NCBI GenBank assembly: GCA_018818885.1
Contig: JAHIRB010000007.1
Span: 18,357 to 82,356 of the forward strand
From: Patescibacteria group bacterium
GTDB lineage: Bacteria > Patescibacteriota > Patescibacteriia > Buchananbacterales > SURF-54
DNA: 64,000 nucleotides
Direction of reading: 5' to 3'
Position 1 is the stretch's first letter. Each line of letters opens with the position of its first letter. Positions 747 to 40,742 of the stretch are shown here, piece after piece. The notes under the pieces were generated by a model. The model did no database searches, was not told the origin of the DNA, and was given only the letters and a program-made list of their open reading frames with translations. A program made the translations under genes and the position numbers.

Positions 747-773
747 GTAGGTCGAGGCCTGACCCCGACCTAC
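747..773. repeat. GC-rich palindromic extragenic element (GTAGGTCG...CGACCTAC)
   Basis: 8-bp stem gtaggtcg/cgacctac with GC-rich loop; same motif family recurs at 25540-25599. Confidence 0.5.
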
Positions 774-794
774 AAGTATTAAATTTAATTTTAC

Positions 795-1561: not shown

Positions 1562-1565
1562 GTTC

Positions 1566-2186: not shown

Positions 2187-2248
2187 ATATAGCAATATTG
2201 TTGTATTTATAGTATAATATAACCATCTTATTTGCACAATATACTTAA

Positions 2249-4486
2249 ATGTCTTCTTACATACCACAAATCAGAGAATTGATAATTGCACCGCCCGATA
2301 AAGCGGCTTCTTATTGTAAATTTTTAAATTCCTCGGTTGAATCACAGTACCATCAAAACTTTGGTTATCTTTTTGGTTTGATTGAATATGAGGGCCCAAT
2401 TGAAAGTATTGATGATTTACTCAACCAATTACTTGGGGAATTACAAAACAATTTTTATTATGATAATTACGAAAAGGATATAGATTTAGAACAGCGACTA
2501 GAAATTGCTCTGCAAAAAACTAATAGCAATTTTTTAAGAATTTTAAATGCCTCTAAAGTAAATATTGAACTAGAAAAACTAAATCTTAATATTGCACTAG
2601 TTAAAGACAAAGACTTATTTTTAATTACAGTCGGAAAAATTCCAGCACTATTAGCTCACAAAGCAACAGATAATGAATACAAAATGATTGACATTGGAGA
2701 ATCCACTTCTGGAGATAAAGCAGGTAATAAAATTGACCCTCTAAAATTATTTTCTCAAGTAATTTCTGGTAGCATTACAACAAACGATTATTTATTTTTA
2801 GCCAATACTACTGTACTAGATTATCTTTCTTTAGAAAAAATTAAAAAGATTATTACTCTAAACAAAATCGATGATGCAATTTTAGAATTAAAAAAACTGC
2901 TTGATGAAGTTAATACTGATTTTAGCATGGGGTTAGTGATTATCTCTGTTGAACCAGCGCTAAAAGATCAACCAGAAATCATCATCAAACAACTAGAAGA
3001 ATTCGAATACACAAAAGCTGCCTCTAAAGATTCAATGCACGAACTTATCAGAACCCAAAACGCTACTCAAAAAATATTAAATACATCTTATTTACCTGAT
3101 ATCAATAAATACAGAACTGTATTCAAGAGATCAATGCAACAATATTTAAATAAAGTTAGAAGTGTACCAATACCAAAAATTCCATCGATTAATAAATTGA
3201 CCTCCATGCAAAAAGCCACTCAACAAATTGAAGAAAAACAATATAGACCCACTATGCAAGACAGACTTTCTAGCATACCAAATCCTTTAAAAAGTTTTAG
3301 GATTTTTAAAAGCGTAAGGTTTAAACTGCCATCAATAAAATTTATTAAAGAAAGAACCAGACAAATGACACCAAAAAGTCGTTTACTTTTATTTGCATCT
3401 ATTGCCCTAATAGTTATTTTTGGAATTAATGTGGTTTACATTGGTGTTAAAAATAAAAATGAGACCAATGCAGAACTGGTTCGCGAAACAATGCTTGCGG
3501 TTCAAGAAAAAAATGACGAGGCCAAAGCTAGCCTGATTTATGAAGACGAAACAAAAGCAAGAAAATTACTGCTAGAAGCAAAAGAAATACTTAATGAACT
3601 AACTAGTGAAAATAAAAAAGAACCTGCCATACAAAATTTAGAACAAGAAATTGAACTGCAACTATCTAAATTAAGACATTTAGTAGAAATTAACGATCCA
3701 CTCATGCTTGCTAATTTCGAAAATGTTAATTCAGCTGCAAGTGTTGCGCCGCTAATTGTGCTGTTAGAAAATAAAATATACAGTCAGGATCATAACAACC
3801 AAGCAATTTATAAACTTGACCCAGACACAAAAAATATCACAACAATTTTTCAAGCTGATGTAAAAATTAAAAACGCAATTTCTTCTAGGCCATTTAGTAG
3901 CTCGAAAATTATATTCTTGAATGAAAACCAAACAGTTTTTGAACTCAATACAAATTCAGATACAATTAGCCAACTGGGATTGAGTATTAATCCCGGAGCT
4001 GAGGTTAACGATTTTGATGTTTATAATCAGCGCTTATATTTTATTGATAAGAAAAATAATCAAATATATAGATATCGTGAGTTAGAAGAAGGCTTTGGCT
4101 CCCCTACTGATTGGATTAAAGAAAAAGTAGATCTATCGATGGTTACTTCTTTTGCCATCGACGGACAAATATTTTTACTAAAAGAAAACGGACAAATTAC
4201 CATGCTTTTGAATGGCTTAAAGACTGATTTTGAAGTATCTGATATTGATCCAGCGCTACAAAACCCAACTAAAGTAAAAACTTTTGTTGATTCAGACTAC
4301 TTATATATTTTAGATCCCTCCAGTAGTCGCTTAGTTGTAATAGATAAAACAGGTAAACTAATTATTCAATACCACTCGAGTAGTTTTGACAATTTAAAAG
4401 ATTTTGCAGTTGACGAACGTAACGATAAGATATATCTTCTAAATGGTAATATGGTTTTTGGAATTTCTGCTAATCACTTAGAATAA
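2249..4486 (+). CDS. large hypothetical membrane-anchored protein (cytoplasmic N-domain, one TM helix, coiled coil, C-terminal beta-propeller-like region)
   Basis: 745 aa; TM segment LLLFASIALIVIFGINVVYIGV mid-protein; coiled-coil stretch; repeated hydrophobic/aromatic blades near C-terminus. Confidence 0.5.
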   Translation: MSSYIPQIRELIIAPPDKAASYCKFLNSSVESQYHQNFGYLFGLIEYEGPIESIDDLLNQLLGELQNNFYYDNYEKDIDLEQRLEIALQKTNSNFLRILNASKVNIELEKLNLNIALVKDKDLFLITVGKIPALLAHKATDNEYKMIDIGESTSGDKAGNKIDPLKLFSQVISGSITTNDYLFLANTTVLDYLSLEKIKKIITLNKIDDAILELKKLLDEVNTDFSMGLVIISVEPALKDQPEIIIKQLEEFEYTKAASKDSMHELIRTQNATQKILNTSYLPDINKYRTVFKRSMQQYLNKVRSVPIPKIPSINKLTSMQKATQQIEEKQYRPTMQDRLSSIPNPLKSFRIFKSVRFKLPSIKFIKERTRQMTPKSRLLLFASIALIVIFGINVVYIGVKNKNETNAELVRETMLAVQEKNDEAKASLIYEDETKARKLLLEAKEILNELTSENKKEPAIQNLEQEIELQLSKLRHLVEINDPLMLANFENVNSAASVAPLIVLLENKIYSQDHNNQAIYKLDPDTKNITTIFQADVKIKNAISSRPFSSSKIIFLNENQTVFELNTNSDTISQLGLSINPGAEVNDFDVYNQRLYFIDKKNNQIYRYRELEEGFGSPTDWIKEKVDLSMVTSFAIDGQIFLLKENGQITMLLNGLKTDFEVSDIDPALQNPTKVKTFVDSDYLYILDPSSSRLVVIDKTGKLIIQYHSSSFDNLKDFAVDERNDKIYLLNGNMVFGISANHLE

Positions 4487-4494
4487 ATTGCATA

Positions 4495-4530
4495 CAAAAA
4501 AATCTCGCTTAGGTTTGCGAGATTTTTTTG
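4495..4530. terminator. bidirectional rho-independent terminator between convergent genes
   Basis: A-run, stem aatctcgc/gcgagatt, T-run. Confidence 0.7.
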
Positions 4531-4541
4531 TATTTTTAAAA

Positions 4542-4979
4542 TTATTTCAAAGTTACTTGTCCGCCTGCTTCTTCTAACTTCTTTTTCATGTTTTCTGCTT
4601 CTTCTTTCTTTACCCCTTCTTTGATAACTGCTGGAGCAGAATCAGCTAAATCTTTAGCTTCTTTTAAACCAAGTTCTGTTACTTCTCTTACTGCTTTAAT
4701 AACACCAATTTTGTTATCACCTGTAGAAGTAAGTTCAACAGTAAATTCTGTCTTTTCTTCTGCAGCAGGTGCATCAGCACTTGCAACTGCCATAGCTACT
4801 GGAGCAGCAGCAGAAACACCAAACTTATCTTCTAAAATGCCAACTAGTTCTGCTAAATCAACTACTGACATCTTTTCGATTTCAGATACAATTGATTTAA
4901 ATTTTTCTGGAACTACTACGTCCTTTTCTTGACCTGAGTTGGTTGAAGGTTTTTCTTCCTTAGTTTTTTCGTCTGTCAT
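4542..4979 (-). CDS. rplL: 50S ribosomal protein L7/L12
   Basis: [10 protein letters not shown]...Ala-rich hinge...[19 protein letters not shown]...EAGGQVTLK; ~18-aa N-terminal extension relative to typical L12. Confidence 0.9.
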
Positions 4980-5023
4980 ATTGTTTTAGTTATTATTAAT
5001 TAAATATTAGAAATTAATTATTG

Positions 5024-5548
5024 TTATTCTTTACTTTCTTTAATTGCTTGCAAAGTATATACTAGATTACTTAGGTTACCCTTTAAAGCAAAGACAAATC
5101 CAGCAATTGGTGATTTGAGTGATCCTACAACTTTAGCATATAACTCTTGTTTAGAAGGTAGTTTAGCTAGTTGTAATAAGTATGCTTCGTCTACATATTC
5201 ATTTTCTATCAATCCACCATACATTTTTAAAGATTCATGGTCTTTAGCAAAGTCAGCAATAATTTTTGCTGGTAATACTTCGTCTTCATATCCAAAAACA
5301 GTAGAAACACCACGTTCAAAACTTTTTACATCAACTTCTTTAAGCTCTGCTTTTTTAATTGCGTTTTTGAGCAAAGTCTTTTTAGTAACTTCAAGATCAA
5401 TATTTTGCTCTTCGCACTTATTTCTAAGTTCTTCTAGTTCTTTTACCGATAATTTATCAAAATTAGCAAAAACAACTGACTTAACTTTCTTTAATTTTTC
5501 TACTAAATTTTTTACTATTTCTTCTTTTTTCTGTTTAGTTTTAGCCAT
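5024..5548 (-). CDS. rplJ: 50S ribosomal protein L10
   Basis: 174 aa, position upstream of rplL, typical L10 N-terminal region. Confidence 0.9.
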   Translation of the reverse strand: MAKTKQKKEEIVKNLVEKLKKVKSVVFANFDKLSVKELEELRNKCEEQNIDLEVTKKTLLKNAIKKAELKEVDVKSFERGVSTVFGYEDEVLPAKIIADFAKDHESLKMYGGLIENEYVDEAYLLQLAKLPSKQELYAKVVGSLKSPIAGFVFALKGNLSNLVYTLQAIKESKE

Positions 5549-5700
5549 ATTATATTTAATTAATTTAAAAAATCTGTGGCAAATCCACAGACTAAAATTA
5601 AGGCCTTTTTCCTCGATAGGGTTATACTTTTAAGCTAATTTAGCCCCTATTGTCTGTGGAAATATTTAATTAAGTATAGTTTAGCAGATTACCAGAATTT
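5549..5700 (-). promoter_or_regulatory. rplJ leader region with attenuator-like hairpin (tctgtgg/ccacaga + T-run)
   Basis: hairpin 5567-5595 followed on minus strand by tttttt immediately upstream of rplJ start; L10 leaders are commonly autoregulatory. Confidence 0.4.
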
Positions 5701-5778
5701 GTCAAGAAAATGTATTAGTCCAGCACATATTGGACACATAGTTATTTTTTAATAAGTAATCCACAGGAGTCTCTAAAT

Positions 5779-5973
5779 TCAGACCCCAGTGGAATCGTTT
5801 TGTATTATACCAAACCAGCCATCAGCTGATTTCCTGGTATCTGCAACTTCTGATGTTCTGCATGAATCATTTTTTATATCCTGTAGATATTCTTCTCCTT
5901 GCTTATCCTTAATCCGATCTAAAAATTTCTGCCAGCATTCCAAACATAAATCTTCGCCATCCAGAATCGTCAT
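5779..5973 (-). CDS. small hypothetical ORF (64 aa, Cys-containing), possibly gene remnant
   Basis: ORF only; GC slightly elevated; adjacent 24-codon ORF in another frame suggests frameshifted remnant. Confidence 0.2.
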   Translation of the reverse strand: MTILDGEDLCLECWQKFLDRIKDKQGEEYLQDIKNDSCRTSEVADTRKSADGWFGIIQNDSTGV

Positions 5974-6066
5974 CCTTCCCTCTGTATCTAATTCTTTTTA
6001 AACCTGTCCAAATTAGTAAGTTGCTTTTCTTTTTTGACATATTTTTCAAATCCTTCAGACATAGTA

Positions 6067-6753
6067 TTAGCTAATTACTGTTCCTTTGATCTTTTTGTTA
6101 GTTAATATACTTTTAAGATTATTGAGATCACTACCCATAGCTATCACTAGAGTTAGTCCTAGTTTGTGTGATAATTTTGTAGCGATTGGATCAAAAGGCA
6201 CATGTGCACCTGGTACCCACTTATAACCAACAATTTTTTGAAAATCATTCCATTTCATTTGTTTATACTTTTTGGCATTTTTAAATTTATTTGGATCTTT
6301 GTCGTAGACATAAGATATGTTTGAAAGATTGATTAATGTCTTGGCATGAAAATTTTTAGCTATAAGTACTGCGTCTTTATCTGATGATGATCCAGGCAAG
6401 TATCCGGCGCCAACAATAATTTTTTTAGTAGTTTTGATTTTTGCTGATGGATTATGTATAACTTTTTCATATGCTAAATTTCCAAAAATTGCTCTAACTA
6501 ATTCTGCGTTAATTTTTGTTGTAGCAATCCCAACCCAATCTAAATCTATATGGGTAACTTTAGGATTGACTTTTTTTGCTGCCCCTTGATATTTTCTGCA
6601 TGTATCTCCTCCACCGCAGACAATTATTACACGATTTCCTTTTTTTACAAAATCTATAATTATCTTTTTAAAATTCTTTAAAAATTTTACATCTACGCCT
6701 TTTGGTGCAATTAGTGACCCGCCGAGTGACATTACGATAGTTTTGTTAGCCAT
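6067..6753 (-). CDS. pyrH: uridylate (UMP) kinase, amino-acid-kinase family
   Basis: MSLGGSLI...VIIVCGGG motifs of UMP kinase/aspartokinase fold. Confidence 0.75.
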   Translation of the reverse strand: MANKTIVMSLGGSLIAPKGVDVKFLKNFKKIIIDFVKKGNRVIIVCGGGDTCRKYQGAAKKVNPKVTHIDLDWVGIATTKINAELVRAIFGNLAYEKVIHNPSAKIKTTKKIIVGAGYLPGSSSDKDAVLIAKNFHAKTLINLSNISYVYDKDPNKFKNAKKYKQMKWNDFQKIVGYKWVPGAHVPFDPIATKLSHKLGLTLVIAMGSDLNNLKSILTNKKIKGTVIS

Positions 6754-6841
6754 AATGTATAGTTATGTTAATAAAGTTAATACGGTTGATATGTTAATAT
6801 AGAAATCGTATTAACTATATTAACTGTATCAACTACACTTC

Positions 6842-7879
6842 TCAATCTAAATACTTAGCCCTATTCGCTGCGTGACCTTCTAAATTTGATGCATAATGTA
6901 CTGTTCCGTCTTCTTCTGTTAAAAAATAATAATAACTATTTTTATCTGGATATATTGCAGCCATAATTGAAGAAAGTGATGGGTTACAAATTGGTCCTGG
7001 CGGTAATCCAATATATTTATATGTGTTGTAAGGATTATCAATTTTTGTTTCTTCTATGCTTGAACGCGTTTTACCTGTTTGGGTGAAAAAATTAATGGTA
7101 GAATCTGCCTGTAGGGGCATGTCATTATTTAATCTTTTATAAAATACTGAGGCTACTAGCTTTCTATCCTCATCTGTTGCTACTTCTTTTTCGATTATTG
7201 AAGCTAGGGTAAGAGTATCGTGAATGTTGACATTATTTATTTTGATTTGTTCTTTCATCTCAGTTGTTAATTTTTGTTCGAAATTATCTAGCATCTTTTT
7301 AACGACTGTGATTAGTTCTGCATCATGATATATTCTGTAAGTATCAGGAAATAAATACCCTTCTAACCCTTGATCTTTTGGTTTATCGAATAAAAAGTCG
7401 TAATGTTCGGAAAAATCATACAGACCCACATCTTCACCTACCTCGTAAGTTTGACCTGGTTCTCCAACTAATTTGTATAAATCATCAGCATTATACACAC
7501 CTTCTTGTTCAAAATAGTATGCAATATCGCGTGTATCCCAACCTTCAATTATTGTTATTGCACGTTCCTTGTCTTTGACTAAGCCGCCTGATAAAACTTG
7601 TGCTACTTCTTTAATACTTAAATTTTTTGCCAAATCATATTCACCACTCATTAATTTTGAACTAATACCATTTTTCCAAACATACAAAACAAAAACTTGA
7701 TTACTTTTTATAAAACCTTGTTTTTCTAATTGCTCAGCTATTTTCATACTCCCCCAGCCTGGGTGAACAATAAACTCTTCTACTTCGGAAACTTTGGAAT
7801 ATGGTGAACCAACTACATACAGATAATACAAAAAAAGTATTACAATAATAATGATGATTGTGAAAACTAATTTTCTCAT
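6842..7879 (-). CDS. mltG: endolytic murein transglycosylase MltG (YceG family)
   Basis: N-terminal TM helix, YNTYKYIGLPPGPICNPS motif characteristic of YceG/MltG. Confidence 0.85.
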   Translation of the reverse strand: MRKLVFTIIIIIVILFLYYLYVVGSPYSKVSEVEEFIVHPGWGSMKIAEQLEKQGFIKSNQVFVLYVWKNGISSKLMSGEYDLAKNLSIKEVAQVLSGGLVKDKERAITIIEGWDTRDIAYYFEQEGVYNADDLYKLVGEPGQTYEVGEDVGLYDFSEHYDFLFDKPKDQGLEGYLFPDTYRIYHDAELITVVKKMLDNFEQKLTTEMKEQIKINNVNIHDTLTLASIIEKEVATDEDRKLVASVFYKRLNNDMPLQADSTINFFTQTGKTRSSIEETKIDNPYNTYKYIGLPPGPICNPSLSSIMAAIYPDKNSYYYFLTEEDGTVHYASNLEGHAANRAKYLD

Positions 7880-7880
7880 G

Positions 7881-8591
7881 TTATTTTGGACCTTGCCAAT
7901 TATTTTTTACGTCTTCGTAACGCTTAAATGTTCCTGTGTCAAACCATTGGGCATTACTTTTAAAACCATATAATTTTTCATCTGATGCTAATTTAGGAAA
8001 AACATCTTTTTCAAACATGACAAAATCATTGTCTGGAATGTATTTATAAATTTCTGGTTTAAAAATATAGTAGCCTGAATTTGCGTAATTGCTAGGTGCA
8101 TTTTCTTCTGCTGGTTTTTCAATAAAATCTACAATTTTATCATCATCCATTTTTGCTATACCATAGTGTGTTACATCGTCTACCTTAGTTAAAGCTATGG
8201 TGGCGATCCCATCGTGGCTTATATGAAATTCTAACATTTTATTTAAGTCTAAAGCAAATAAATTGTCTCCGTTTATTACAATAAAATCTTCCTTTTCCTC
8301 GCATCCTATTTGCTTCATCAATACTAATGGTCCTGCAGTTCCCATTGGCTTTTCTTCTATTAGATAATTGATTTTGAGTCTAAACTTTGCACCATCACTA
8401 AAGTGTTGCTTGATCTTTTCTGCTTTGTAACCAAGGCTTAGAATGATATCGGTGATATTATACTTTTTTAAAATATCAAAAACATGCTCAGTAAGAGTTT
8501 GACCTTGCACATCTATTAATGGTTTTGGAGTTGTGTACGTAAGCGGCCTAAGACGAGTGCCTTCTCCACCTGCTAAAATTATTGCTTTCAT
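7881..8591 (-). CDS. sugar-phosphate nucleotidyltransferase (NTP_transferase family, short form)
   Basis: ILAGGEGTRLRPLT...KPL signature. Confidence 0.75.
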   Translation of the reverse strand: MKAIILAGGEGTRLRPLTYTTPKPLIDVQGQTLTEHVFDILKKYNITDIILSLGYKAEKIKQHFSDGAKFRLKINYLIEEKPMGTAGPLVLMKQIGCEEKEDFIVINGDNLFALDLNKMLEFHISHDGIATIALTKVDDVTHYGIAKMDDDKIVDFIEKPAEENAPSNYANSGYYIFKPEIYKYIPDNDFVMFEKDVFPKLASDEKLYGFKSNAQWFDTGTFKRYEDVKNNWQGPK

Positions 8592-9598
8592 TTTTCTCGT
8601 TCAATTTGATCTTTAAAAATAATATCTTTAATAAATTGCCTTAATTGTGCTTCGGTTTCCGTAGTTGTGCCTAATCTTGCTTTATTGTGTTGTGCTAACG
8701 CCGGTCTTGCTTTTTTTGTTACTGTATCAGACAACCTCAGCATTTCAGTATCACCTTGCAAAACTAATCTACCTCTTGCGGCATACGACTTAACCATATC
8801 TATTATTTTATTATCTTCATAATTATCAACGATTGTTTCAAGTGCTTTTCTCACCTCCATCCAGTTATTTGAACGACGTAGTTCTTCCACACCAATATTA
8901 AACATAAATTCTAAAACTTCTGTAGCTTTTTTATCTATTTCTGCAGTTTGTTTTTTAGGATTGTATACAATATCTGGTAAATTAAGCACTGGCTCACTTA
9001 CTTGCTCTCCGTCTTTAGAAGAAAAGATAATATCACTGGTAAGTAATTCACCTATACCACCATGCTCCTTGTGTGTTTGACTAACATGTTGCGTGGCAGT
9101 AGCTAGAGCTTGAAAACGATCAATTTCATTTAATCTATCAGAGTCTATTTGATCAGAACGATAAATATCCTGCAAGGCTATGCCTTGGGTATATAGTTCC
9201 TGCTGTTTGATTTCAATCCCGTTTACATGTTCACCATAATAGTCTTGTAATCCTAACCTTTTAATGTTTTGTAACTTTTCTTCTTGATTGCCACGATATC
9301 GTTTTGTGCCAGGAGCTAAAAATTTTAAAAACCATTTTGGATGTTTTTTTAACAACTTCCATGGTTCCTCTAAAAGATGCTCATCATATGTTCTTAGTAC
9401 AGCATCACCTTTTTGATCTCCCTTTGAAACAACACCCGTTGTATCGTAAATCATTTTTTCATCCTGCATCTTTAATTTTCCACCATATATACCAACCGTG
9501 CTTTCATAATTAACATTAGGCAATCGTGACTCATTAACTGTTGACTGTACTTTTTCTTTCATACCTTCTAGAAAAGATTGTGATTCATGTTTGGACAT
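8588..9598 (-). CDS. hypothetical protein (possible atypical kinase-like HGGIGELLTSD motif)
   Basis: 336-aa ORF overlapping upstream gene by 4 nt (operon); no confident family. Confidence 0.5.
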   Translation of the reverse strand: MSKHESQSFLEGMKEKVQSTVNESRLPNVNYESTVGIYGGKLKMQDEKMIYDTTGVVSKGDQKGDAVLRTYDEHLLEEPWKLLKKHPKWFLKFLAPGTKRYRGNQEEKLQNIKRLGLQDYYGEHVNGIEIKQQELYTQGIALQDIYRSDQIDSDRLNEIDRFQALATATQHVSQTHKEHGGIGELLTSDIIFSSKDGEQVSEPVLNLPDIVYNPKKQTAEIDKKATEVLEFMFNIGVEELRRSNNWMEVRKALETIVDNYEDNKIIDMVKSYAARGRLVLQGDTEMLRLSDTVTKKARPALAQHNKARLGTTTETEAQLRQFIKDIIFKDQIEREK

Positions 9599-9599
9599 A

Positions 9600-10265
9600 T
9601 TACTCTTGGTTCAATTGCATTCTAAATTTAATTAAAAAGTCGACAACTTCATATAATTTTTCTAAACCCAAAACGGTATTTTCTTTAAACTCATCAATAA
9701 TTTCATGTTGAGCTTTCTCAACAGAAAAAGCTTCTTTATAACTACGCTTTGAAAGCATTGCATCTACTTCGTCTGCAATCCTAAGCAACTCAATAGATTC
9801 TAATTGTTCATTAGTTAATTCACCGGTTGGAGAAGTATAATTGTGATGGCTTTCTATTAATGGTAATTCTTTTTCTAAGCCGAGTTTATTTTTTGCAATA
9901 CTAACGCCGTCTTCAACATGTTTACCCATTACCTCGGCAATCTGTTCTTTTGGGATTTGTACATCACTATTTAATATTTCTTGATCAATGCTAGTTTTTC
10001 CTAAATCATGGACAAGTGCAGACTTCACTAAAACATCTTTTGCTTTGTCACTGATATTAAGCTTTAGCCTCTTAACCATCTCTAAACACATTTCTGAAGT
10101 ACGTAAAGAATGATCATAACTGCCTTCGTCCCAGCCTTTTAAACTGTTGAGCTCGTCGGCAACTTCTTTTCTTTGTTCTTCATCAAAAAGCATCAAAATC
10201 TCTTGAGATATTAATTTTTCACTATTTTCTTTTTCCGCAAGTGCAGAAGAATATTCTAAATTCAT
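9600..10265 (-). CDS. HD-domain phosphohydrolase
   Basis: H...HDLGK...D pattern of HD superfamily. Confidence 0.65.
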   Translation of the reverse strand: MNLEYSSALAEKENSEKLISQEILMLFDEEQRKEVADELNSLKGWDEGSYDHSLRTSEMCLEMVKRLKLNISDKAKDVLVKSALVHDLGKTSIDQEILNSDVQIPKEQIAEVMGKHVEDGVSIAKNKLGLEKELPLIESHHNYTSPTGELTNEQLESIELLRIADEVDAMLSKRSYKEAFSVEKAQHEIIDEFKENTVLGLEKLYEVVDFLIKFRMQLNQE

Positions 10266-10267
10266 AA

Positions 10268-10888
10268 TTAATCTTTAATTAATGGTACAAAAACAAATCC
10301 TGGAAAAATTTCTTCGTCGTACTTGTTTTTGTCTGTTTTGACTACCAAACGTATATCTTGATTAGCAGTCGGTATTACTAACCTTCCATTGACAACTAGC
10401 TGTTCTTTTAAAGCATTTGGCACTTCTTTAACTGCTGCAGACACAATTATCCTATCAAAAGGTGCATATTTTTTCAAGCCTTGGTATCCGTCAAAATTAT
10501 AAAACTCAACATTATTGAATTTATATTTTGCTACATTGTTTTGCCCAAATTCATTTAATTCTTTAATCCTTTCGATTGCATAGACTTTTCCTGACTTTCC
10601 TACTATATTTGCGAGCATGGCAGTTGTCCAGCCAGAGCCAGAACCTACATCTAATATTTTTTGACCTTTTCTTGGTTGCAAATTTTCAAACATAAAAGCA
10701 ACTGTTAAAGGTTGCGAGATTGTCTGGCCATGTCCAATTGGTAAAGGTGAATTCAAAGTTTCTTGACCTTGTAATTCTTGCGAAATAAAATCTTTACGTT
10801 TGACCGTTCTGAAGGCTTCGATAATTTCTGGACTCTTTAAATAGCCTTGGGAAATTAATTGATTAATTAAATTTTGCATACTAAACAA
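10268..10888 (-). CDS. pcm: protein-L-isoaspartate O-methyltransferase
   Basis: GQTISQP and LDVGSGSG motifs. Confidence 0.8.
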   Translation of the reverse strand: MFSMQNLINQLISQGYLKSPEIIEAFRTVKRKDFISQELQGQETLNSPLPIGHGQTISQPLTVAFMFENLQPRKGQKILDVGSGSGWTTAMLANIVGKSGKVYAIERIKELNEFGQNNVAKYKFNNVEFYNFDGYQGLKKYAPFDRIIVSAAVKEVPNALKEQLVVNGRLVIPTANQDIRLVVKTDKNKYDEEIFPGFVFVPLIKD

Positions 10889-12191: not shown

Positions 12192-12215
12192 TTAATTAAC
12201 GAATGCCATATTTTG

Positions 12216-12304
12216 CCGGAATGACACACTTTTTCGCCAGAGGCGAATCATACTCAGGCTGAAGTGTGTTAAAAACGATAACAGTCTAAAGACTGTCAAT
12301 CCGG
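12216..12304. repeat. REP-like 89-bp element copy 1 (two hairpins: acacact...agtgtgt and acagtct-aa-agactgt)
   Basis: near-identical (1 mismatch) to 12926-13017; partial third copy with expanded loop at 12316-12376 containing the transposase stop codon. Confidence 0.8.
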
Positions 12305-12362: not shown

Positions 12363-12914
12363 TCAATCCGGTGGGGTTTTGGTAAAATCTATCACTGAAT
12401 ACTCTTCAAACACAGATAAGATCCATTCTTTTCCGTATTTCTTTAAATAATAATTATAACTTGAAAATTTATAACTTTCTAGCTGATCAAGGCTTCTAAC
12501 ATAATCATGTTTTATAGGATTGCAATGAATATAATTGAAACGTGTCCAGAAGTCTTTTTCTGATTCTAGAATAGTATCATGATATTGATGCCATACTTTT
12601 CTACCTCGTTTATCGTCTAGACTATTCACAAGAAAAGAACTCTTTCCATTAATCAACTTAGTAATTTTTTTCAAATTATCTTTATTCTTAATTCTACAAT
12701 TTAAATGATAATGATTTCTTAAAACAACCCATGCTAACAAATTTTCATTACATTCATCAAATGCATTCTTAATACATTCTGATAATATTTCTCTTTTTTT
12801 GTCACTATGAAAATAATTAAATTCCTTATAGGTTCTTGCTGTAATAAAATATTGAGTATTATCTAAATATATATGAGGTAAACGGTGTATATTTCGTTTT
12901 TTTGGATAATGCAT
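12363..12914 (-). CDS. IS200-like / REP-associated tyrosine transposase (HuH Y1 transposase, RAYT)
   Basis: 183 aa; HuH motif NHYHL, conserved Tyr region, flanked on both sides by REP-like repeats. Confidence 0.75.
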   Translation of the reverse strand: MHYPKKRNIHRLPHIYLDNTQYFITARTYKEFNYFHSDKKREILSECIKNAFDECNENLLAWVVLRNHYHLNCRIKNKDNLKKITKLINGKSSFLVNSLDDKRGRKVWHQYHDTILESEKDFWTRFNYIHCNPIKHDYVRSLDQLESYKFSSYNYYLKKYGKEWILSVFEEYSVIDFTKTPPD

Positions 12915-12925
12915 AAAAAATCTTG

Positions 12926-13017
12926 TCGGAATGACACACTTTTTCGCCAGAGGCGAATCATACTCAGGCTGAAGTGTGTTAAAAACGGTAACAGTCTAAA
13001 GACTGTCAATCCGGTGG
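12926..13017. repeat. REP-like element copy 2 (direct repeat of 12216-12304)
   Basis: direct sequence identity, begins 12 nt upstream of transposase start. Confidence 0.8.
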
Positions 13018-16782: not shown

Positions 16783-17316
16783 CTATTCCAGTACATATTC
16801 CCACCCAGGCTGCCATTGCCACGGATCTGTTAAAACCTTTTCAAGAGAATACCCTTTTATCCAGTGCTCCAAACCATATTGAGTTACTCTATGCCCTATT
16901 ATCATAATCTTCTTGTCTTGATAGTCTTTATTTAAGTCATCAAAAAAACTTTTCATTCTTTCCATGCACTCTTGATAACTTTCCCCGATAGGGAACGGTT
17001 GATTAATATATTTTGATCTTACTTTGTTTACTTCTTCATTGGGGTGATGTTCTAAATCCCCGTAATCACATTCACGTAATCTTTTATCTTTTATAATTTT
17101 GAAATCTCTATTCTTAAAAGCTATTTCTGCAGTATTGTAAGATCTTTTTAGATTAGAACAAAAGATAGCGTCAAAGTGTTCATTCTTGTAACGCTCTCCT
17201 AATTCTTTAGCTTGTTGTTGTCCTAGTTCAGATAGCTCAACATCATCTAACCCAGAAGCTAATCCTTTCTCATTATCGAGACTTGTGGCATGTGATTCAA
17301 AAATTATCGTAACCAT
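16783..17316 (-). CDS. histidine phosphatase superfamily protein (phosphoglycerate-mutase-like)
   Basis: ESHATS...GHR arrangement resembling RHG...H catalytic pair but with R/G substitutions. Confidence 0.55.
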   Translation of the reverse strand: MVTIIFESHATSLDNEKGLASGLDDVELSELGQQQAKELGERYKNEHFDAIFCSNLKRSYNTAEIAFKNRDFKIIKDKRLRECDYGDLEHHPNEEVNKVRSKYINQPFPIGESYQECMERMKSFFDDLNKDYQDKKIMIIGHRVTQYGLEHWIKGYSLEKVLTDPWQWQPGWEYVLE

Positions 17317-17324
17317 ATTATTAT

Positions 17325-17456
17325 ATTGTCATCTCGACCGTTATTTATTTATTTTATGCGAGTGGAGAGATCTCACCCCAAACTTCTTGAAAGGTGTGAG
17401 ATTCTCCGCCAGAGGCGGATCTGCCTATGGCATGACTCGACAAGCTCGGAATGACT
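17325..17456. repeat. composite REP-related hairpin cluster
   Basis: ggagagatctcacc/ggtgtgagattctcc hairpin; gccagaggcggatctgcctatggc palindrome shared with REP and with CDS tails at 47071 and 55461; gctcggaatgac terminal motif. Confidence 0.55.
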
Positions 17457-17460: not shown

Positions 17461-18027
17461 TTAACTAACTTGCTTAATTAGTTTCTTTGTTAATTCTATT
17501 GGCAAACCTTGCACACTATCAATTGTTCCTTCTATCTTAATTACATGATCCGCAATATCTGCATATGCCATGTTATACCCCCCAGCAAAAGTATAAACGA
17601 CTTTATCCTTAGCTATCTTTTCGATTTGATCATCAGAAAATTTGCTAAACCATAGCTTAGCAATGTCAATTCCCTCTGCTGTTTTGCCAGTTTTGGTATT
17701 TGTGGTTATTACAGATGTTACGGTTTGTACAGGATATTTTTCATAGCTTTGTAAAAATTTTCTAACCTCTGCTTCGTTTTCTGGTTTTTCTCGTATCTCG
17801 CCATCACAAACTCCCACTTGGTCAGATGTAATTAAAATTGCATCTTCTTTTATTTTTGGTAAAAGCGCTTCTGCTTTGGCACGACCTATTTTTAAAACTA
17901 GCTGTTTTGGGTCTTCATCACGAATGGCTTTTTCGTCAATTCTTGGAATCATCACTTCAAAATCATAACCCATACTTTCTAAAACTTTTTTGCGCCAAAA
18001 AGATTGTGAACCGAGAATTATTTTCAT
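17461..18027 (-). CDS. maf: Maf-like nucleoside triphosphate pyrophosphatase
   Basis: MKIILGSQSFWRK N-terminus (Maf signature LxSxSPRR-like) and full-length 189 aa. Confidence 0.85.
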   Translation of the reverse strand: MKIILGSQSFWRKKVLESMGYDFEVMIPRIDEKAIRDEDPKQLVLKIGRAKAEALLPKIKEDAILITSDQVGVCDGEIREKPENEAEVRKFLQSYEKYPVQTVTSVITTNTKTGKTAEGIDIAKLWFSKFSDDQIEKIAKDKVVYTFAGGYNMAYADIADHVIKIEGTIDSVQGLPIELTKKLIKQVS

Positions 18028-18045
18028 AATATTATCTATCCTCTT

Positions 18046-18140
18046 TGTCATTCTGAACACGTTCGTTACACTCAGTGTAAACTCCGTGAATAATCTCAGC
18101 TTAGATCCTTCAGTCGTTTACACTCCTTCAGGATGACAAG
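18046..18140. repeat. 95-bp element with terminal inverted repeat tgtcattctgaa/ttcaggatgaca
   Basis: direct inspection; internal palindrome gttacactcagtgtaaac. Confidence 0.5.
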
Positions 18141-18159
18141 TTAAGCACCATGACATTTC

Positions 18160-18363
18160 TTAAAATTGTTTCTGTAAAGCTATTATTGCAATAATAATCG
18201 CACCTAATGCAATTAAATTAGCGACTGCGGCCATCCAGAAACTCCAAGTTTTCCATTCTGGTTTTTTCATCACTCCGGCAATAGCTACAAGTGATTCTTG
18301 GCTTTTTTCTTTTAATCCCATAATTTTATTAAAATGAATTGTAACCTTTATTCCACATGACAC
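18160..18363 (-). CDS. small membrane protein
   Basis: 67 aa with one hydrophobic helix. Confidence 0.35.
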   Translation of the reverse strand: MSCGIKVTIHFNKIMGLKEKSQESLVAIAGVMKKPEWKTWSFWMAAVANLIALGAIIIAIIALQKQF

Positions 18364-18374
18364 TTTTAATCTTA

Positions 18375-18887
18375 TTAGCCCACAGAAATCTTATCTATCT
18401 TATCCTGAATATACCTTGAAAAATATCCTCTATATTTTTTTTGTAGTGTTTTCTTTTGCCAATCTTTACCAGCAATAATCTTACGACAATTTTTCTGTGC
18501 ACAGTTACATTTTGTTTTATAAATATCATTGTCTACCATTGCGTAATCAATGGTCAATTCTTCCTCTGCTTTAATATCTCGCATAGCCACAAAAGTAATT
18601 TCGCCTCGAACACCAATGTTCGGATTACATGAGTGATTTAAAAACATCATAATTTTACCGACCTCATTGCTTTTTAATGGACCTATAACAAAATCATCAT
18701 CAATTTGGAAATAGGAATCACCAATCAAATGTCTTATTCTCTGGAGAGTTTTCCAACCAATAATATGACCACCTTTGATACCGACCAACTCTCCTTTCTT
18801 AATTTGACGTATGCCAAATAATCCACGGCCTTCAATTAAACTTTTCTTTACCCTCGTTTTTGGTGATAAATAAGATTTTATATTCAT
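18375..18887 (-). CDS. SET-domain protein (lysine methyltransferase-like) with post-SET Cys cluster
   Basis: NHSCNPN and ELTIDY motifs plus CNCAQKNCR. Confidence 0.75.
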   Translation of the reverse strand: MNIKSYLSPKTRVKKSLIEGRGLFGIRQIKKGELVGIKGGHIIGWKTLQRIRHLIGDSYFQIDDDFVIGPLKSNEVGKIMMFLNHSCNPNIGVRGEITFVAMRDIKAEEELTIDYAMVDNDIYKTKCNCAQKNCRKIIAGKDWQKKTLQKKYRGYFSRYIQDKIDKISVG

Positions 18888-18897
18888 ATCTTTTATT

Positions 18898-18969
18898 CTA
18901 CATTACATAACACTTCTTATCCAAGATCTTTTTGCGAGGTTTGGATTGTGAGCCGAGGATTATTTTCAT
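18898..18969 (-). other. 23-codon upstream ORF that is a relic copy of the maf 5-prime end (MKIILGSQSKPRKK...)
   Basis: about 80 percent nucleotide identity to first 41 nt of maf; stop 10 nt before SET start codon. Confidence 0.6.
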
Positions 18970-19523
18970 TTTGACTTCTCTAACAATAGATAGGGATAAC
19001 CTTTAAAATCTCTCTCAACATTTTGACAGCCATGTTGTTTTAAAAAATCAATCATTTCATCTGATTTGTGCTTAACATCTGATATTTTTTTTAAACCGAT
19101 ATATTCTACTTCGATAAAACTGCCTAAATCCTTTACAGAATCAATAGCCACTTCATAATCTTGATAAATATATACTTTCCTTACTTTATCTACGGTTATC
19201 ACTTTTTTGAGATCTAATGCTTCTAAGATTTTTTGACCAGTGTCTTTGTCATCAATTACTATTTCATACTCATCGCAATGATAAGCTTTGCCGTCTTCTT
19301 GATAATGCCAGTTTTTGTAATTAATTGTATTCTTTTCCGCTTCTGTTCTTAATCGTAGCCATTCTTTAATTGGAGTGACTTTCGTAAAATCTCGATGAGA
19401 AGGGACATAATATTGATCGACTTGTTTATTTTCAAATTGAAATTTTCCTTTTTCTATTAAAAACTCTTCCAAGTCTTTTGTATCGTTTACTTTTACTTTA
19501 ATTTCTATTTCTTGATTAGACAT
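18966..19523 (-). CDS. CYTH-domain protein (CyaB-like class IV adenylyl cyclase / triphosphatase fold)
   Basis: EIEIKVKV N-terminus, RLR and SFIEVEY acidic strands typical of CYTH; start taken at ATG MSNQEIEIK rather than TTG of ORF track. Confidence 0.7.
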   Translation of the reverse strand: MSNQEIEIKVKVNDTKDLEEFLIEKGKFQFENKQVDQYYVPSHRDFTKVTPIKEWLRLRTEAEKNTINYKNWHYQEDGKAYHCDEYEIVIDDKDTGQKILEALDLKKVITVDKVRKVYIYQDYEVAIDSVKDLGSFIEVEYIGLKKISDVKHKSDEMIDFLKQHGCQNVERDFKGYPYLLLEKSK

Positions 19524-19524
19524 A

Positions 19525-19590
19525 TTATTTCTTATGACACTTCTTAAATTTTTTTCGCCAAGGAGATTGTGATCCAAGAATTATTTTCAT
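19525..19590 (-). other. 21-codon upstream ORF, second relic copy of the maf 5-prime end (MKIILGSQSPWRKK...)
   Basis: nucleotide similarity to maf start; stop codon 1 nt before CYTH ATG. Confidence 0.6.
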
Positions 19591-19614
19591 AAATTCTCTG
19601 TTACCCTTTATAAT

Positions 19615-20190
19615 TTAGTCAAAAATAAAAATGTTATTAACTAATCTTAGATGTAATGTTTCGATTTCTTTAATCTTACCCAACACCCATACCTCGCTTC
19701 CTCTCTTTGAATTTTTAAAAGTTGGATATTTTTCTAAGTCAACATTCTCACAAATAACTGACAGACCTAAAATAGAACCAGTTTTAGAATGAAAATATAA
19801 AGTAACTTTTTTATTATCGCTAATCGATAAACTTGAAAATTCTAACTTCCAACAAATTTTAATATCCTTAAAACTTTCTCTAATTGATGATTGCTGGAAT
19901 GGCGTTACAGACTCTACCTTCTCTTCAATCTCTTCAGGTGTAGGGCTTAACTGATACCCGCCATCTTCTATCATCTTCTTAACCTTTTGGGATAATTCTT
20001 TCTCAATAGGAATTTTCTCAATTGAGTCGTTGCTTGGAAAACTTTTAGAGACGGGTTTATCTGTGTCTGCATATTTTTTATTTTTTCTGTGTTTAAATAG
20101 CAACACTATCGATGGTAATAAAGTAAATATAATAACAACTCCTACCCCTGAAAAAATCCATTCTTTGTTTTGCCAAATATACTCTAACAT
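19615..20190 (-). CDS. hypothetical membrane-anchored protein
   Basis: one N-terminal TM helix; ATG start chosen over GTG of ORF track. Confidence 0.45.
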   Translation of the reverse strand: MLEYIWQNKEWIFSGVGVVIIFTLLPSIVLLFKHRKNKKYADTDKPVSKSFPSNDSIEKIPIEKELSQKVKKMIEDGGYQLSPTPEEIEEKVESVTPFQQSSIRESFKDIKICWKLEFSSLSISDNKKVTLYFHSKTGSILGLSVICENVDLEKYPTFKNSKRGSEVWVLGKIKEIETLHLRLVNNIFIFD

Positions 20191-20210
20191 AATATTTATC
20201 CACCATGACA

Positions 20211-20240
20211 CCCCGTACAGTCGCTTCGCGACTTACGGGG
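20211..20240. other. near-perfect 30-nt palindrome (13-bp stem with one bulge, ttc loop) downstream of secA
   Basis: ccccgtacagtcgc-ttc-gcgacttacgggg. Confidence 0.6.
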
Positions 20241-20253
20241 CATGCTCCTTAAA

Positions 20254-23076
20254 TTATTTGCCGTGGCACTTTTTAAACTTCTTACCACTCCCACATGGAC
20301 AAGCATCATTTCTCCCTACTTTTTGTCCGTTGTAATGGGTCTGTGCGCTGTCTTCTAACTTTGCTTGACGTTTTTCTACATCTTGTTGCATTGCTTGCTG
20401 CTCATCAACTTTCTGATCCCTGATCCCTGATCCCTGATTACTGATTCCCTGCCCCCGTTCCATAGTCTTTGCCGGTGCTACAAACTGCATGCCTGCCCGT
20501 TGGAATATTCCTGGAGTAAACTGCTGTGCTACACCAACTTTGTATATAGAGTAAACTACTTGTTTTTGAATTAAATTCATCAATTCTGTAAATAGCTTAT
20601 ATGCTTCTTTTTTATATTCAACTAAAGGATCGCGCTGGCCATAGCCACGAAGTCCAATCCCAGTACGTAAATAATTTATTGCATCTAAATGTTCTACCCA
20701 CAAATTATCTATAGCTCTCAAATAGATTTGTTTTTCTACTTTTCGTATTGGAATAACTTTTGTTTCTTGGAAGTCAGCTGTGTTCTGCATTGCTTGATTA
20801 ACATTATATTCAAGTTTATCATATTGCTCTTTTGCAATATTTAGTAAATGATTGATTATTTTAGTTCTAGCCTTTACTTCGTCTGGTTTTGACTTTTCCG
20901 ACATGTCTTCCTTTATCTTGTCTAAATCTAAACGAAGGGTTTGATCGACTCTAAAAATTGAATTAGCTACTTCGTAAATTTCTTTAATATCCCAAGATTT
21001 AGGATCATCAGAAGCAGTATGGAAAGAAACCACCGCCTCAATCTCTTGCTCAATTAACTCAATAACTTTATCTCTAATATCGTCTTTCTCTAGCACTTCA
21101 CGCCTTTTCTGATACACTACTTCCCTATGCTTGTTTATAACATCATCGTATTCTACCAAATGTTTTCTGATATCAAAATTATGTCCTTCTACTTTTTTCT
21201 GCGCTGATTCAATTGAACGAGTAATCATTTTGTTTTCAATTGGCATGTCTTCTGGCACTTTTAGAGTTGTCATCATGCTTTTAATTCTATCAGACCCAAA
21301 AATCCGCATTAGTTCATCTTCTAAAGAAAGATAAAATCTAGTACTTCCTGCATCTCCTTGACGGCCAGAACGTCCACGAAGTTGATTATCTATTCTACGC
21401 GACTCATGCCTTTCTGTACCGATGACATGCAAACCACCAGCTTTTTTGACGATATCTTGTGCACCTTCTTCTGGCGGGTTACCACCTAAAACAATATCAA
21501 CTCCCCTACCGGCCATGTTAGTAGCTACTGTAACACCACTCGGTCGACCAGCTTGAGCAATAATGTTTCCTTCTTTTTCGTGTTGTTTGGCGTTTAGAAC
21601 TTGATGTTCTATTCCCGCTCTATTTAACATCTGTGATAAAAATTCGTTTTGCTCAATAGCAACTGTGCCAATAAGTACTGGCTGACCCTTAGTTTGCTTT
21701 TCTTTGATATCCTTAATTAGCGCCTCGTATTTTCCCTTGGCAGTTTTGTAAACAAGGTCGTTTTTGTCATCACGTACCATTGGTTTGTTTGTCGGTATTA
21801 CTGTAACTTCTAAACCATAAATTTTAGAAAATTCTTCTGCTTCTGTTGCAGCAGTACCTGTCATCCCAGAAAGTTTTTTGTATTGCCTAAAATAATTTTG
21901 AAAAGTAATTGTTGCCAATGTTTTTGATTCACGTTGAACTGCCACACCTTCTTTTGCTTCTATTGCTTGGTGCAAACCTTCTGAGTAGCGACGACCTTGC
22001 ATCATTCTACCGGTGAATTCATCTACGATAATTACCTCGCCATCTTTTACCACGTAGTCTTTGTCGCGCTTAAATAATGCATGCGCCTTTAATGCTTGTT
22101 CAATATGATGAACCATAGTAATGCCACCTTCGGTATAAATATTTCCCATGCCCAACATTTTTTCCATTTTTGTTATTCCGTTTTCAGTCAAAGTCGATGC
22201 TCGCATTTTTTCATCAATATTATAATCAACGTCTACTTCTAATTTTTTGACTAGTTCTGCAAACCGAGCATATTGGTCTGTACTTTCTGTATCTGGCGCA
22301 GATATGATAAGCGGAGTTCTGGCTTCGTCGATTAAAATACTATCGATTTCATCAATAATACAATAATGCAAATCTCTTTGAACCATTTGTTCTTTTGTTT
22401 GCACCATGTTGTCACGTAAAAAATCAAAACCATATTCATTGTTTGTGCCATATGTTATATCTGCAACATATGCTTCTTTACGTTCAACTGGGCGTAAAAA
22501 TTCATGTACAATTTTAAACGCACCCGTTTTATCGCGTTCTTTATCTTGTTCTGACCCTTCCTCTTTAGGTGTTTGATATGCTGGGTCATACAAAAAAGCA
22601 GACTCATGTTGAATACAGCCTACTGATATACCTAAAGAATAAAAAACTTGTCCCATCCAGACGCTATCTCTAGCAGCTAAATAATCATTGACAGTGATAA
22701 GATGTACACCCTTGCCTTCTAGAGCGTTTAGATATGCTGCTGTAGTAGAAGCTAAAGTTTTTCCTTCTCCGGTTCTCATTTCTGCAATTATGCCGCGATG
22801 CAAAGTTATACCACCCATCAGCTGTACGTCGAAGTGTCGCTGTTTTAGTGTTCTTTTGGCAGCTTCTCTAACGCATGCGAAAGCATCCGGCAAAATTTCG
22901 TCAAGTGACTTTCCGTCTTTAAGTTGGGATTTAAAAACCGATGTCTGATTTTTAAATTCATCTTCAGACATCTTTTGATATTTTGGTTCTAATTTATTTA
23001 TCTCGTCGACTTTGTCTTGTAGTTCCTTAAGAACTTTGACATTTGGATCTCCGAGAATTTTTGTGAGGATGGACAT
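20254..23076 (-). CDS. secA: preprotein translocase ATPase SecA
   Basis: 940 aa, DEAD motor motifs, C-terminal CPCGSGKKFKKCHG zinc finger. Confidence 0.95.
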   Translation of the reverse strand: MSILTKILGDPNVKVLKELQDKVDEINKLEPKYQKMSEDEFKNQTSVFKSQLKDGKSLDEILPDAFACVREAAKRTLKQRHFDVQLMGGITLHRGIIAEMRTGEGKTLASTTAAYLNALEGKGVHLITVNDYLAARDSVWMGQVFYSLGISVGCIQHESAFLYDPAYQTPKEEGSEQDKERDKTGAFKIVHEFLRPVERKEAYVADITYGTNNEYGFDFLRDNMVQTKEQMVQRDLHYCIIDEIDSILIDEARTPLIISAPDTESTDQYARFAELVKKLEVDVDYNIDEKMRASTLTENGITKMEKMLGMGNIYTEGGITMVHHIEQALKAHALFKRDKDYVVKDGEVIIVDEFTGRMMQGRRYSEGLHQAIEAKEGVAVQRESKTLATITFQNYFRQYKKLSGMTGTAATEAEEFSKIYGLEVTVIPTNKPMVRDDKNDLVYKTAKGKYEALIKDIKEKQTKGQPVLIGTVAIEQNEFLSQMLNRAGIEHQVLNAKQHEKEGNIIAQAGRPSGVTVATNMAGRGVDIVLGGNPPEEGAQDIVKKAGGLHVIGTERHESRRIDNQLRGRSGRQGDAGSTRFYLSLEDELMRIFGSDRIKSMMTTLKVPEDMPIENKMITRSIESAQKKVEGHNFDIRKHLVEYDDVINKHREVVYQKRREVLEKDDIRDKVIELIEQEIEAVVSFHTASDDPKSWDIKEIYEVANSIFRVDQTLRLDLDKIKEDMSEKSKPDEVKARTKIINHLLNIAKEQYDKLEYNVNQAMQNTADFQETKVIPIRKVEKQIYLRAIDNLWVEHLDAINYLRTGIGLRGYGQRDPLVEYKKEAYKLFTELMNLIQKQVVYSIYKVGVAQQFTPGIFQRAGMQFVAPAKTMERGQGISNQGSGIRDQKVDEQQAMQQDVEKRQAKLEDSAQTHYNGQKVGRNDACPCGSGKKFKKCHGK
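20413..20451. repeat. in-frame heptamer microsatellite (ctgatcc x3 then ctgatta/ctgattc) inside secA C-terminal coding region
   Basis: encodes QGSGIRDQ-type repeat; same ctgattact unit recurs at 24505-24556. Confidence 0.7.
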
Positions 23077-24463: not shown

Positions 24464-24504
24464 ATTTTTTGTTAAATAATTATTTATATATTACTATCAT
24501 TATC

Positions 24505-24556
24505 TCTGATACCTTGCACCTGATTACTGATTACTAGTCACTGATTACTCACTACT
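24505..24556. repeat. ctgattact microsatellite (3-4 units) in murB-hpf intergenic region
   Basis: direct inspection. Confidence 0.6.
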
Positions 24557-35144: not shown

Positions 35145-35161
35145 AATTACTTAAAACAAAA

Positions 35162-36244: not shown

Positions 36245-36245
36245 T

Positions 36246-40736: not shown

Positions 40737-40742
40737 CAAATA

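Follow-up and report, generated by a model that had tools for sequence, protein, structure and literature searches.

How do unrelated small genes come to lie one behind another between two housekeeping genes, and why are pieces of those housekeeping genes found at their borders? The question is raised by the secA–maf interval in a 64-kb stretch of DNA from a Patescibacteria group bacterium (contig JAHIRB010000007.1; hereafter the window, in whose coordinates positions are given unless a related locus is named). Patescibacteria have tiny genomes with few recognisable mobile elements and depend obligately on salvaged nucleotides, and how they gain and exchange genes is poorly understood. An initial annotation of the window had held that single-gene cassettes were stacked at the 5' end of maf, each event regenerating a maf start and displacing the previous one. 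Unrelated single-gene units are indeed stacked upstream of maf, and a displaced maf start is kept at two seams; the target, however, is not the maf 5' end alone but the tight junction between the secA stop and the maf start, and the array reaches 20283. Repeated homology-anchored illegitimate recombination at this compact junction has probably made it a hotspot of gene accretion, and the feature is most aptly regarded as a variant of the displacement arrays already known and not as a categorically new cassette system.

All genes of the interval lie on the minus strand, in the order secA, split tail relic, X1, maf-head(14)::secA-tail, CYTH, maf-head(17)::secA-tail, SET, secA-tail, X4, secA-tail, a structured element resembling a miniature inverted-repeat transposable element (MITE), and maf. 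The start of maf occurs three times on this strand, at 18027, 18969 and 19590, as the initial annotation had noticed. The 26-nt maf-start core, ATGAAAATAATYCTYGGNTCACAATC, gave three matches (18002-18027, 18944-18969 and 19565-19590), whereas 0 of 100 shuffled sequences gave any. A repeat search returned a 47-nt family of three copies, in which the two relics are 70% and 87% identical to the maf copy, and a hidden Markov model (HMM) of the maf head, built from 28 related loci, recognised relic 2 at E 1e-8 and relic 1 at E 3e-8. Similarity to maf does not stop after about 10 nt but continues for more than 40 (42 nt in relic 2 and 51 nt in relic 1), and the sequence upstream of the three starts is not conserved. 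Each relic head opens a short open reading frame (ORF) of the ORF list, relic ORF 2 at 19525-19590 (minus strand, 21 aa, MKIILGSQSPWRKKFKKCHKK) and relic ORF 1 at 18898-18969 (minus strand, 23 aa, MKIILGSQSKPRKKILDKKCYVM).

Both relic ORFs are composite. In relic ORF 2, maf codons 1-14 (19549-19590, MKIILGSQSPWRKK) are joined in frame to FKKCHKK* (19525-19548; asterisks mark stop codons), which corresponds to the last 7 codons of SecA plus the stop, the full end reading KKFKKCHKK*. In relic ORF 1, maf codons 1-17 (18919-18969, MKIILGSQSKPRKKILD) are joined in frame to a degenerate SecA tail, KKCYVM* (18898-18918). The true SecA end reads KKFKKCHGK* and belongs to the C-terminal 16 codons at 20254-20301 (minus strand), a SEC-C zinc-finger tail (CPCGSGKKFKKCHGK*) that a secA-tail HMM matched at E 2e-12; it is the source sequence type for every secA-tail relic, as maf codons 1-14 to 1-17 are for the maf-head relics. 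Because the tails of both relic ORFs are made of SecA C-terminal codons, the relics are maf-head::secA-tail chimeras. The string aagaagtgtYat, put forward at first as a special junction motif, is common to both relics (exactly 2 occurrences in the window against 0.03 expected) but spells the SecA codons K-K-C-H/Y. The relic ORF 2 stop lies 1 nt before the CYTH ATG at 19523 (TAA-t-ATG), which matches the native secA–maf spacing of a related locus in which secA and maf are 1 nt apart (L002, TAA-t-ATG). The relic ORF 1 stop precedes the SET ATG at 18887 by 10 nt, and the CYTH stop overlaps the ATG of relic ORF 1 (ATGA).

Fragments of the secA 3' end are clustered in the same interval. The six-frame motif KC[HY]xx(x)* had 6 matches in 64 kb, 5 of them on the minus strand within 18141-20271. 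With the true secA end excluded, four relic tails fall in 18101-20250 where 0.06 would be expected, and 0 of 2000 shuffles reached four; a second motif, CH[GK]x*, matched five times in the window, four times in the secA–maf region. Downstream of secA five tail relics can be read, all on the same strand: CHGG*, FKKCHKK*, KKCYVM*, KCHVE* and FKKCHGA*. From each stop to the next gene there are 1-26 nt, except that after FKKCHGA* come first the MITE and then maf. The degenerate relic at 18348-18377 (minus strand; core KCHVE* at 18348-18365) stands directly after the SET stop, reads TAA TAA GAT TAA AAG TGT CAT GTG GAA TAA and ends 26 nt before X4; the three TAA codons upstream of its core may be former Lys codons. 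The last relic, (RNN)FKKCHGA* (18141-18173, minus strand, with FKKCHGA* at 18141-18164), overlaps the last X4 codons but is read in another frame; a related locus (L011) has exactly this peptide as its true SecA end, and the secA-tail HMM gave the relic E 0.025.

The relic nearest secA is a probable one split by a hairpin (20196-20253, minus strand) and ends 5 nt before the X1 ATG. It runs tttaaggag (FKE), catg, a 30-nt GC-rich hairpin at 20211-20240 and then tgtcatggtggaTAA (CHGG*, 20196-20210). The hairpin, CCCCGTAAGTCGCGAAGCGACTGTACGGGG, has a predicted fold of -25.8 kcal/mol (z -3.35) and occurs once in the window. An identical copy (100%) is present in the related locus L097 at 129-158, flanked by GHGKK..KK and CHGV* and directly upstream of CYTH, so that the tail relic is split between KK and CH in both. 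The CYTH proteins of the window and L097 are about 72-73% identical, whereas the hairpin is 100% identical. Despite the duplicated end fragments, both flanking genes are intact. The upstream anchor, secA (20254-23076, minus strand; ORF list), retains its Pfam SecA domains including SEC-C, and maf (17461-18027, minus strand, 188 aa), the downstream boundary of the hotspot, is matched by Pfam Maf at 1.5e-38 over 1-186/187.

Is the same junction used in other lineages? Related loci, numbered with the prefix L, were gathered by an alignment-based metagenome scan, a genome-collection scan with maf alone having given just 3 useful loci. The Maf N-terminus, MKIILGSQSxxRKK(I/V)LE, is near-invariant across a large Patescibacteria Maf family. 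Both empty sites and alternative cargo were found at related maf loci: the secA-to-maf gap between alignment ends, available for 28 loci, was 5-13 nt in 6 and 44-2958 nt in 22. In L011, whose Maf is 71% identical to that of the window, a 245-aa membrane protein and Ldh_2 lie between the two genes, and in L013 (Maf 62% identical) the gap holds NUDIX, UMPH-1 and a small reverse-strand ORF. The loci L012 and L097 (Maf 85% identical) carry a CYTH orthologue (72%), a maf-head relic and a GC-rich segment of foreign DNA in which an 84-aa ORF lies on the reverse strand; here the relic that follows CYTH has its ATG changed to TAC, is broken after codon 14 of the head and runs into the foreign DNA. A SET gene 30% identical to that of the window sits in the secA–maf gap of L085. 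Across lineages the cargo is mostly for nucleotide house-cleaning or salvage (NUDIX, NTPase_I-T, dCMP/cytidine deaminases, HD/YfbR-like 5'-nucleotidase, MazG-like, and Nuc_deoxyrib_tr or nucleoside deoxyribosyltransferase-like proteins), together with CYTH, DUF1653, SET, ASCH, GNAT and methyltransferase proteins, among others.

A census of scars was made by HMM search over 95 loci (833 kb) followed by inspection. Extra secA tails were found in at least 11 other lineages (L013, L027, L028, L030/31, L034, L040, L043, L044, L071, L074 and L085), with three extra copies in L040. All of them lay upstream of maf and on its strand, whereas matches with E >1, which were noise, fell on either strand. 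Extra maf heads were present in the window and in L012/L097 only, and no maf head was found on an unrelated gene distant from maf, an arrangement that a shared leader peptide would have predicted. In L027, L028, L040 and L044 a variant secA tail is followed by a stretch like a repetitive extragenic palindrome (REP) and then by an old tail, (D)GSGKK[FY]KKC[HC]G[KRA]*; the old tail stands directly before maf in L044, and more sequence intervenes in the other three. In two lineages the old tail has become part of a cargo protein. A NUDIX ORF of L085 (9037-9498) reads into a complete old SEC-C tail (Pfam SEC-C) whose end is 4 nt short of the maf ATG, and a cargo ORF of ~190 aa in L034 (about 9340-9910) ends in VGRNESCPCNSGKKFNQCHGK*, a complete SEC-C tail, with ~90 nt and a REP-like stretch before maf. 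Two further candidates were dropped: the CYTH end KKFKKYHEQ* of L012 had looked like a CYTH::secA-tail fusion, but CYTH homologues natively end in LLLKKKYGI, LLLNKKYHI and the like, and a gene of L032 starting MKIVLGSIS, considered as a maf-head relic, has the native N-terminus of an NTPase_I-T protein.

The relic heads themselves indicate where they came from. At 12 codons conserved in the family, they show seven differences from the maf head, and 7/7 are synonymous (P about 2e-5 under neutral decay); amino-acid differences are confined to the family-variable positions 10-11. These synonymous-only differences argue that the relics diverged within functional maf genes of other lineages and not by decay after duplication in situ. 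The relic 2 head is nearest to the maf head of L012 (90%), followed at 88% by those of L011 and of the window's own maf, and the relic 1 head is nearest to a maf head of the L013 type (83%). The GC content at third codon positions is 0.54 in the relic 1 head, compared to about 0.25 in neighbouring genes.

We propose that the array units are pieces of loci of the form secA-tail, cargo, (maf-head) from related genomes, which would have been joined end to end. The cargo genes keep native-looking contacts with their flanks (TAA-t-ATG, ATGA), and for this reason the units look like excerpts of single-cargo secA-X-maf loci. Incoming DNA from relatives would pair with the resident chromosome through a long homologous anchor and need no dedicated recombinase. 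This anchor is most likely secA, and secA is probably the usual one, since secA-tail relics far outnumber maf-head relics across lineages. The other end would then join illegitimately at microhomology in the A-rich Lys-Lys codons (AAAAAA / AARAAR) of either the secA tail or the maf head, and older units would be pushed along, not deleted, which is the sense of displacement. An insertion that spares both genes would have to bring in a spare end of one of them while disrupting the resident one; because secA and maf abut, only such end-duplicating events keep both intact, and the scars are therefore always made of gene ends. The expected result is a truncated secA tail at every seam, plus a truncated maf head at two seams here, and the relic ORFs would be scars. 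DNA uptake would fit with the presence of a type IV pilus cluster at about 33360-43000 of the window (PilB with MshEN, PilC, a large N_methyl pilin-like protein, PilM and PilO-like).

The seams lack precision. Breakpoints fall in A-rich Lys-Lys codons of both gene ends (CGN AAA AAR in the maf head; AAR AAR TTT AAR AAR in the secA tail). Relic 2 and L012 keep the maf head up to codon 14 and relic 1 up to codon 17, and the secA-tail fragments begin at F, KK or KC. The inter-gene seams fold no better than shuffled sequences (z +0.06 to +0.61) and show no attC-like structure. With seam positions so variable and junctions unstructured, a site-specific system of the tRNA-island or integron kind is disfavoured, and the initial annotation's analogy to islands that integrate at tRNA genes is not supported by heads that end at codon 14 in one case and 17 in the other or by tails entered at F or at KK.

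Arrays with a similar logic have been described, which makes it an overstatement to call a stacked-cassette system of this type undescribed: precedents are found at rhs (PMC2935791), type VI secretion system (T6SS) (PMC5361080) and dusA (PMC4482086) loci. In the C-terminal displacement arrays of rhs and the orphan cdiA-CT/cdiI modules of contact-dependent inhibition (CDI) loci (Jackson et al. 2009, PMC2935791), heterogeneous modules likewise follow a conserved upstream gene, each preceded by a leftover 3' fragment of the anchor, and laterally acquired modules shunt older ones downstream with no dedicated integrase. Unlike in those systems, the anchor here is the housekeeping gene secA, of which only about 7-16 codons are duplicated, and the cargo consists of small nucleotide-metabolism or miscellaneous genes, not of toxin tips and immunity genes. 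A second core gene, maf, also bounds the array here and adds relics of its own, giving the chimeric maf::secA mini-ORFs. As the cargo comprises enzymes and small membrane proteins, with no PADLOC or toxin match except one weak N-terminal one, the junction works like displacement arrays but stands outside those families.

The orphan immunity arrays of the Vibrio cholerae T6SS are attributed to sequential displacement, proposed to proceed via homology-facilitated illegitimate recombination (Kirchberger et al. 2017, PMC5361080). They share with the present locus the proposed mechanism, a homologous anchor upstream combined with an illegitimate join downstream, and the successive additions. There, however, the old effector is replaced and immunity genes alone persist, whereas here whole cargo genes persist; the seams here are visible as fused gene-end fragments, and the lineage is Patescibacteria. 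The same study notes a parallel between the T6SS array and integrons, without an integrase. Integron arrays resemble the present one in their promoterless single-gene units, in one orientation and at one site, with newer units displacing older ones, but no IntI, attI or attC hairpins are present here, and the junctions are unstructured fragments of core genes. Islands at the 5' end of dusA, inserted via DusA-associated integrases (Farrugia et al. 2015, PMC4482086), are similar in that a protein-gene 5' end is the point of insertion, the start is restored by the incoming DNA and a displaced 5' fragment is left as a repeat. Those islands have a specific tyrosine integrase and precise attachment (att) cores, while neither is seen here and the seams are imprecise; the relics here also include the 3' end of the upstream gene.

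Several observations weigh against displacement at the secA/maf junction, or against a simple form of it. The hairpin-split tail precedes X1 in the window but CYTH in L097, and an internal insertion or deletion is therefore needed, not addition at one end alone. Relatives share 57-62% SecA identity and no close donor was found; at this identity donor–recipient homology may be too low for efficient RecA pairing. A sliding-window comparison of SecA with 16 relatives for a mosaic 3' end had 62% as its best relative, too distant to be informative. Decay of the relics follows no steady course along the array that would give the direction or order of events: FKKCHKK* and FKKCHGA* are intact, the two between them degenerate. 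These two, KKCYVM* and KCHVE*, are too short for HMM scoring and were identified from the motif-cluster statistic and from where they lie. Finally, both maf::secA fusions are intact and in frame, for which the chance is 1 in 9, and this may hint at selection on the relic ORFs.

Islands classically leave a regenerated gene end and a displaced direct repeat, and the three maf heads could be read as such repeats if an integrase inserted cassettes or islands at an att site that overlapped the 5' end of maf, every one of them bringing a replacement maf start; the dusA 5'-end islands would be the precedent (PMC4482086). This explanation appears highly improbable to us. No tyrosine or serine recombinase is encoded in the 64-kb window, nor was any recombinase Pfam family found among its called genes or scanned ORFs of >=150 aa, in agreement with the earlier remark that no integrase is present; the sole transposase-like gene is Y1_Tnp (12363-12914, minus strand). 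The repeats are 70-88% identical without an identical core, the heads and tails are cut at varying positions, and the seams have no hairpin. The order maf head then secA tail is the reverse of that in attL/attR hybrids of the native site, and most lineages have secA-tail relics without a maf-head relic. That same order is exactly what would arise from circular intermediates, as proposed for rhs arrays (PMC2935791): recombination between secA tails would excise circles of tail plus cargo, which after transfer would be inserted into another genome by a single crossover at its secA tail or maf head, so that the chimera would be the closure joint of a circle after Campbell-type insertion. The arrays of the window and L097 do differ in one entire unit with secA-tail copies at its borders. 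We regard this route as possible but doubtful, given that the repeats (21-51 nt, and diverged) are poor substrates for a RecA-dependent single crossover, that most relic tails are cut at variable points instead of being the full hybrid copies a crossover would leave, and that the initial closure joint would itself require an illegitimate event.

The relic ORFs might alternatively be portable leader peptides or coupling adapters, selected because they drive translation of acquired genes. Both still begin with ATG, stay open and end in frame at a native secA stop that lies 1-10 nt from the start of the cargo gene, CYTH and SET have no obvious Shine-Dalgarno sequence in the 25 nt upstream, no terminator was predicted between secA and maf, and the 7/7 synonymous pattern would suit a selected peptide. 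Descent from functional maf alleles, however, explains that pattern equally well, and chance alone would put both fusions in frame in 1 case out of 9. The orthologous relic of L012/L097 has lost its ATG and continues into foreign DNA, and maf heads are absent from other genes in the 833 kb of relatives. That the relic ORFs are selected modules of this kind is very unlikely. Least credible is tandem duplication in situ of the interval from secA tail to maf head with differential loss or divergence, or else a chimera of the metagenome assembly from which the contig derives, which together we consider remote in the extreme. The maf-head::secA-tail joint is a textbook novel junction of a tandem duplication, yet the cargo genes come from unrelated families, differential deletion could not reproduce the native flank spacing of each, and the relic heads resemble alleles of other lineages with synonymous differences only. 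We consider an assembly chimera unlikely. Three contigs on record carry the SET protein, all described as one and the same gene neighbourhood, the CYTH-linked relic was found in two other samples, and the joins do not fall at shared k-mers, which leaves an assembler without reason to create them.

Under displacement at the secA/maf junction, any coupling through the relic ORFs would be incidental. The relic ORFs keep a start, an open frame and the native secA stop beside a cargo ATG, and may on this account give CYTH and SET stop-start coupling without having been selected for it. Coupling of CYTH and SET by termination and reinitiation is plausible from this arrangement, possibly as a by-product. 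Promoter-like matches in the region are uninterpretable, the DNA being AT-rich. A bolder proposal is that the junction acts as a reusable plug-in adapter, in which landing genes would receive a coupling context and, needing no signals of their own, expression from the secA–maf transcript, capture without a recombinase would be maintained by selection, and SEC-C would repeatedly be welded onto unrelated cargo proteins. We think it unlikely that this is so, but if it were, the L085 NUDIX::SEC-C and L034 proteins would represent a concrete route for the spread of SEC-C to non-SecA proteins. That the SEC-C motif has spread to such proteins has long been noted, and tail capture by the L085 and L034 cargo may be one route.

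The locus is a readable record of gene gain without a recombinase, its seams holding datable fragments from different donor alleles. It carries the displacement-array idea from toxin loci, where it is known, over to a housekeeping gene and illustrates that gene-end scars can turn into small upstream ORFs or C-terminal domain fusions. Since cargo for sanitation and salvage turns over beside maf, itself a nucleotide pyrophosphatase, the hotspot may be where nucleotide sanitation is tuned.

The four cargo units of the window differ in kind. CYTH (18966-19523, minus strand, 185 aa) is a class IV adenylate cyclase / CyaB-like protein (Pfam CYTH 5e-19) that matches TIGR00318 cyaB (NCBIfam) at 83 bits, exceeding the cutoff, and the SET-domain gene (18375-18887, minus strand, 170 aa) is matched by Pfam SET at 1.4e-15; these identities, like that of Maf, had been read correctly from the translations. 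X1 (19615-20190, minus strand), a called gene in the source contig, encodes a predicted membrane protein of 191 aa. It had no Pfam match, and a homologue search of 5.8 billion proteins returned X1 alone, making it an ORFan. X4 (18160-18321, minus strand) is likewise called as a gene in the source contig, but it is a putative gene that would encode a 53-aa predicted single-helix membrane peptide, with at most a weak, sub-cutoff Pfam match to DUF2231. A defence-system scan of the cargo with PADLOC gave nothing convincing and no toxins; X1, which has an N-terminal membrane helix, showed one weak N-terminal match to the PADLOC candidate PDC-M43A.

The MITE/REP-like structured element between the last secA-tail relic and maf (18047-18137, minus strand, 91 nt) has GTCATYCTGAA inverted termini and a predicted fold of -34.1 kcal/mol (z -3.7), and its terminal motif has 8 matches in the window against 1.8 expected. 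Elements with GTCATYCYGAR termini appear to form a MITE/REP-like family at 18047-18137, 17320-17455, 13131 and 53958. One of them stands just after maf, and the pair that brackets the gene folds at -34 and -48 kcal/mol. A gapped pattern search for the family gave no match, and an Rfam scan of the region returned one sub-threshold Cyano-2 match only (17284-17425). The Y1_Tnp gene, IS200-like and possibly REP-associated, has a direct repeat of 108 nt on each side (12197-12304 and 12907-13014), the two copies being 92% identical. A short CTGAT-rich direct repeat also lies in the secA 3' linker (20416-20446; low complexity of the QGSGIRDQ type), with similar copies at 24502-24553.

Two observations in related loci extend the range of arrangements. 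In L058 a secA-tail-like KKYKKCCGV* (6266-6294) follows right after the maf stop, which suggests that in some lineages maf can itself lie upstream of a displaced secA tail. In L099 an array of ~10 kb on one strand (408-10765) contains six NUDIX genes, a MazG-like gene, a nucleoside deoxyribosyltransferase, two CYTH genes, a HAD gene and a pyrophosphatase, and a weak secA-tail-like match lies just upstream of its first gene.

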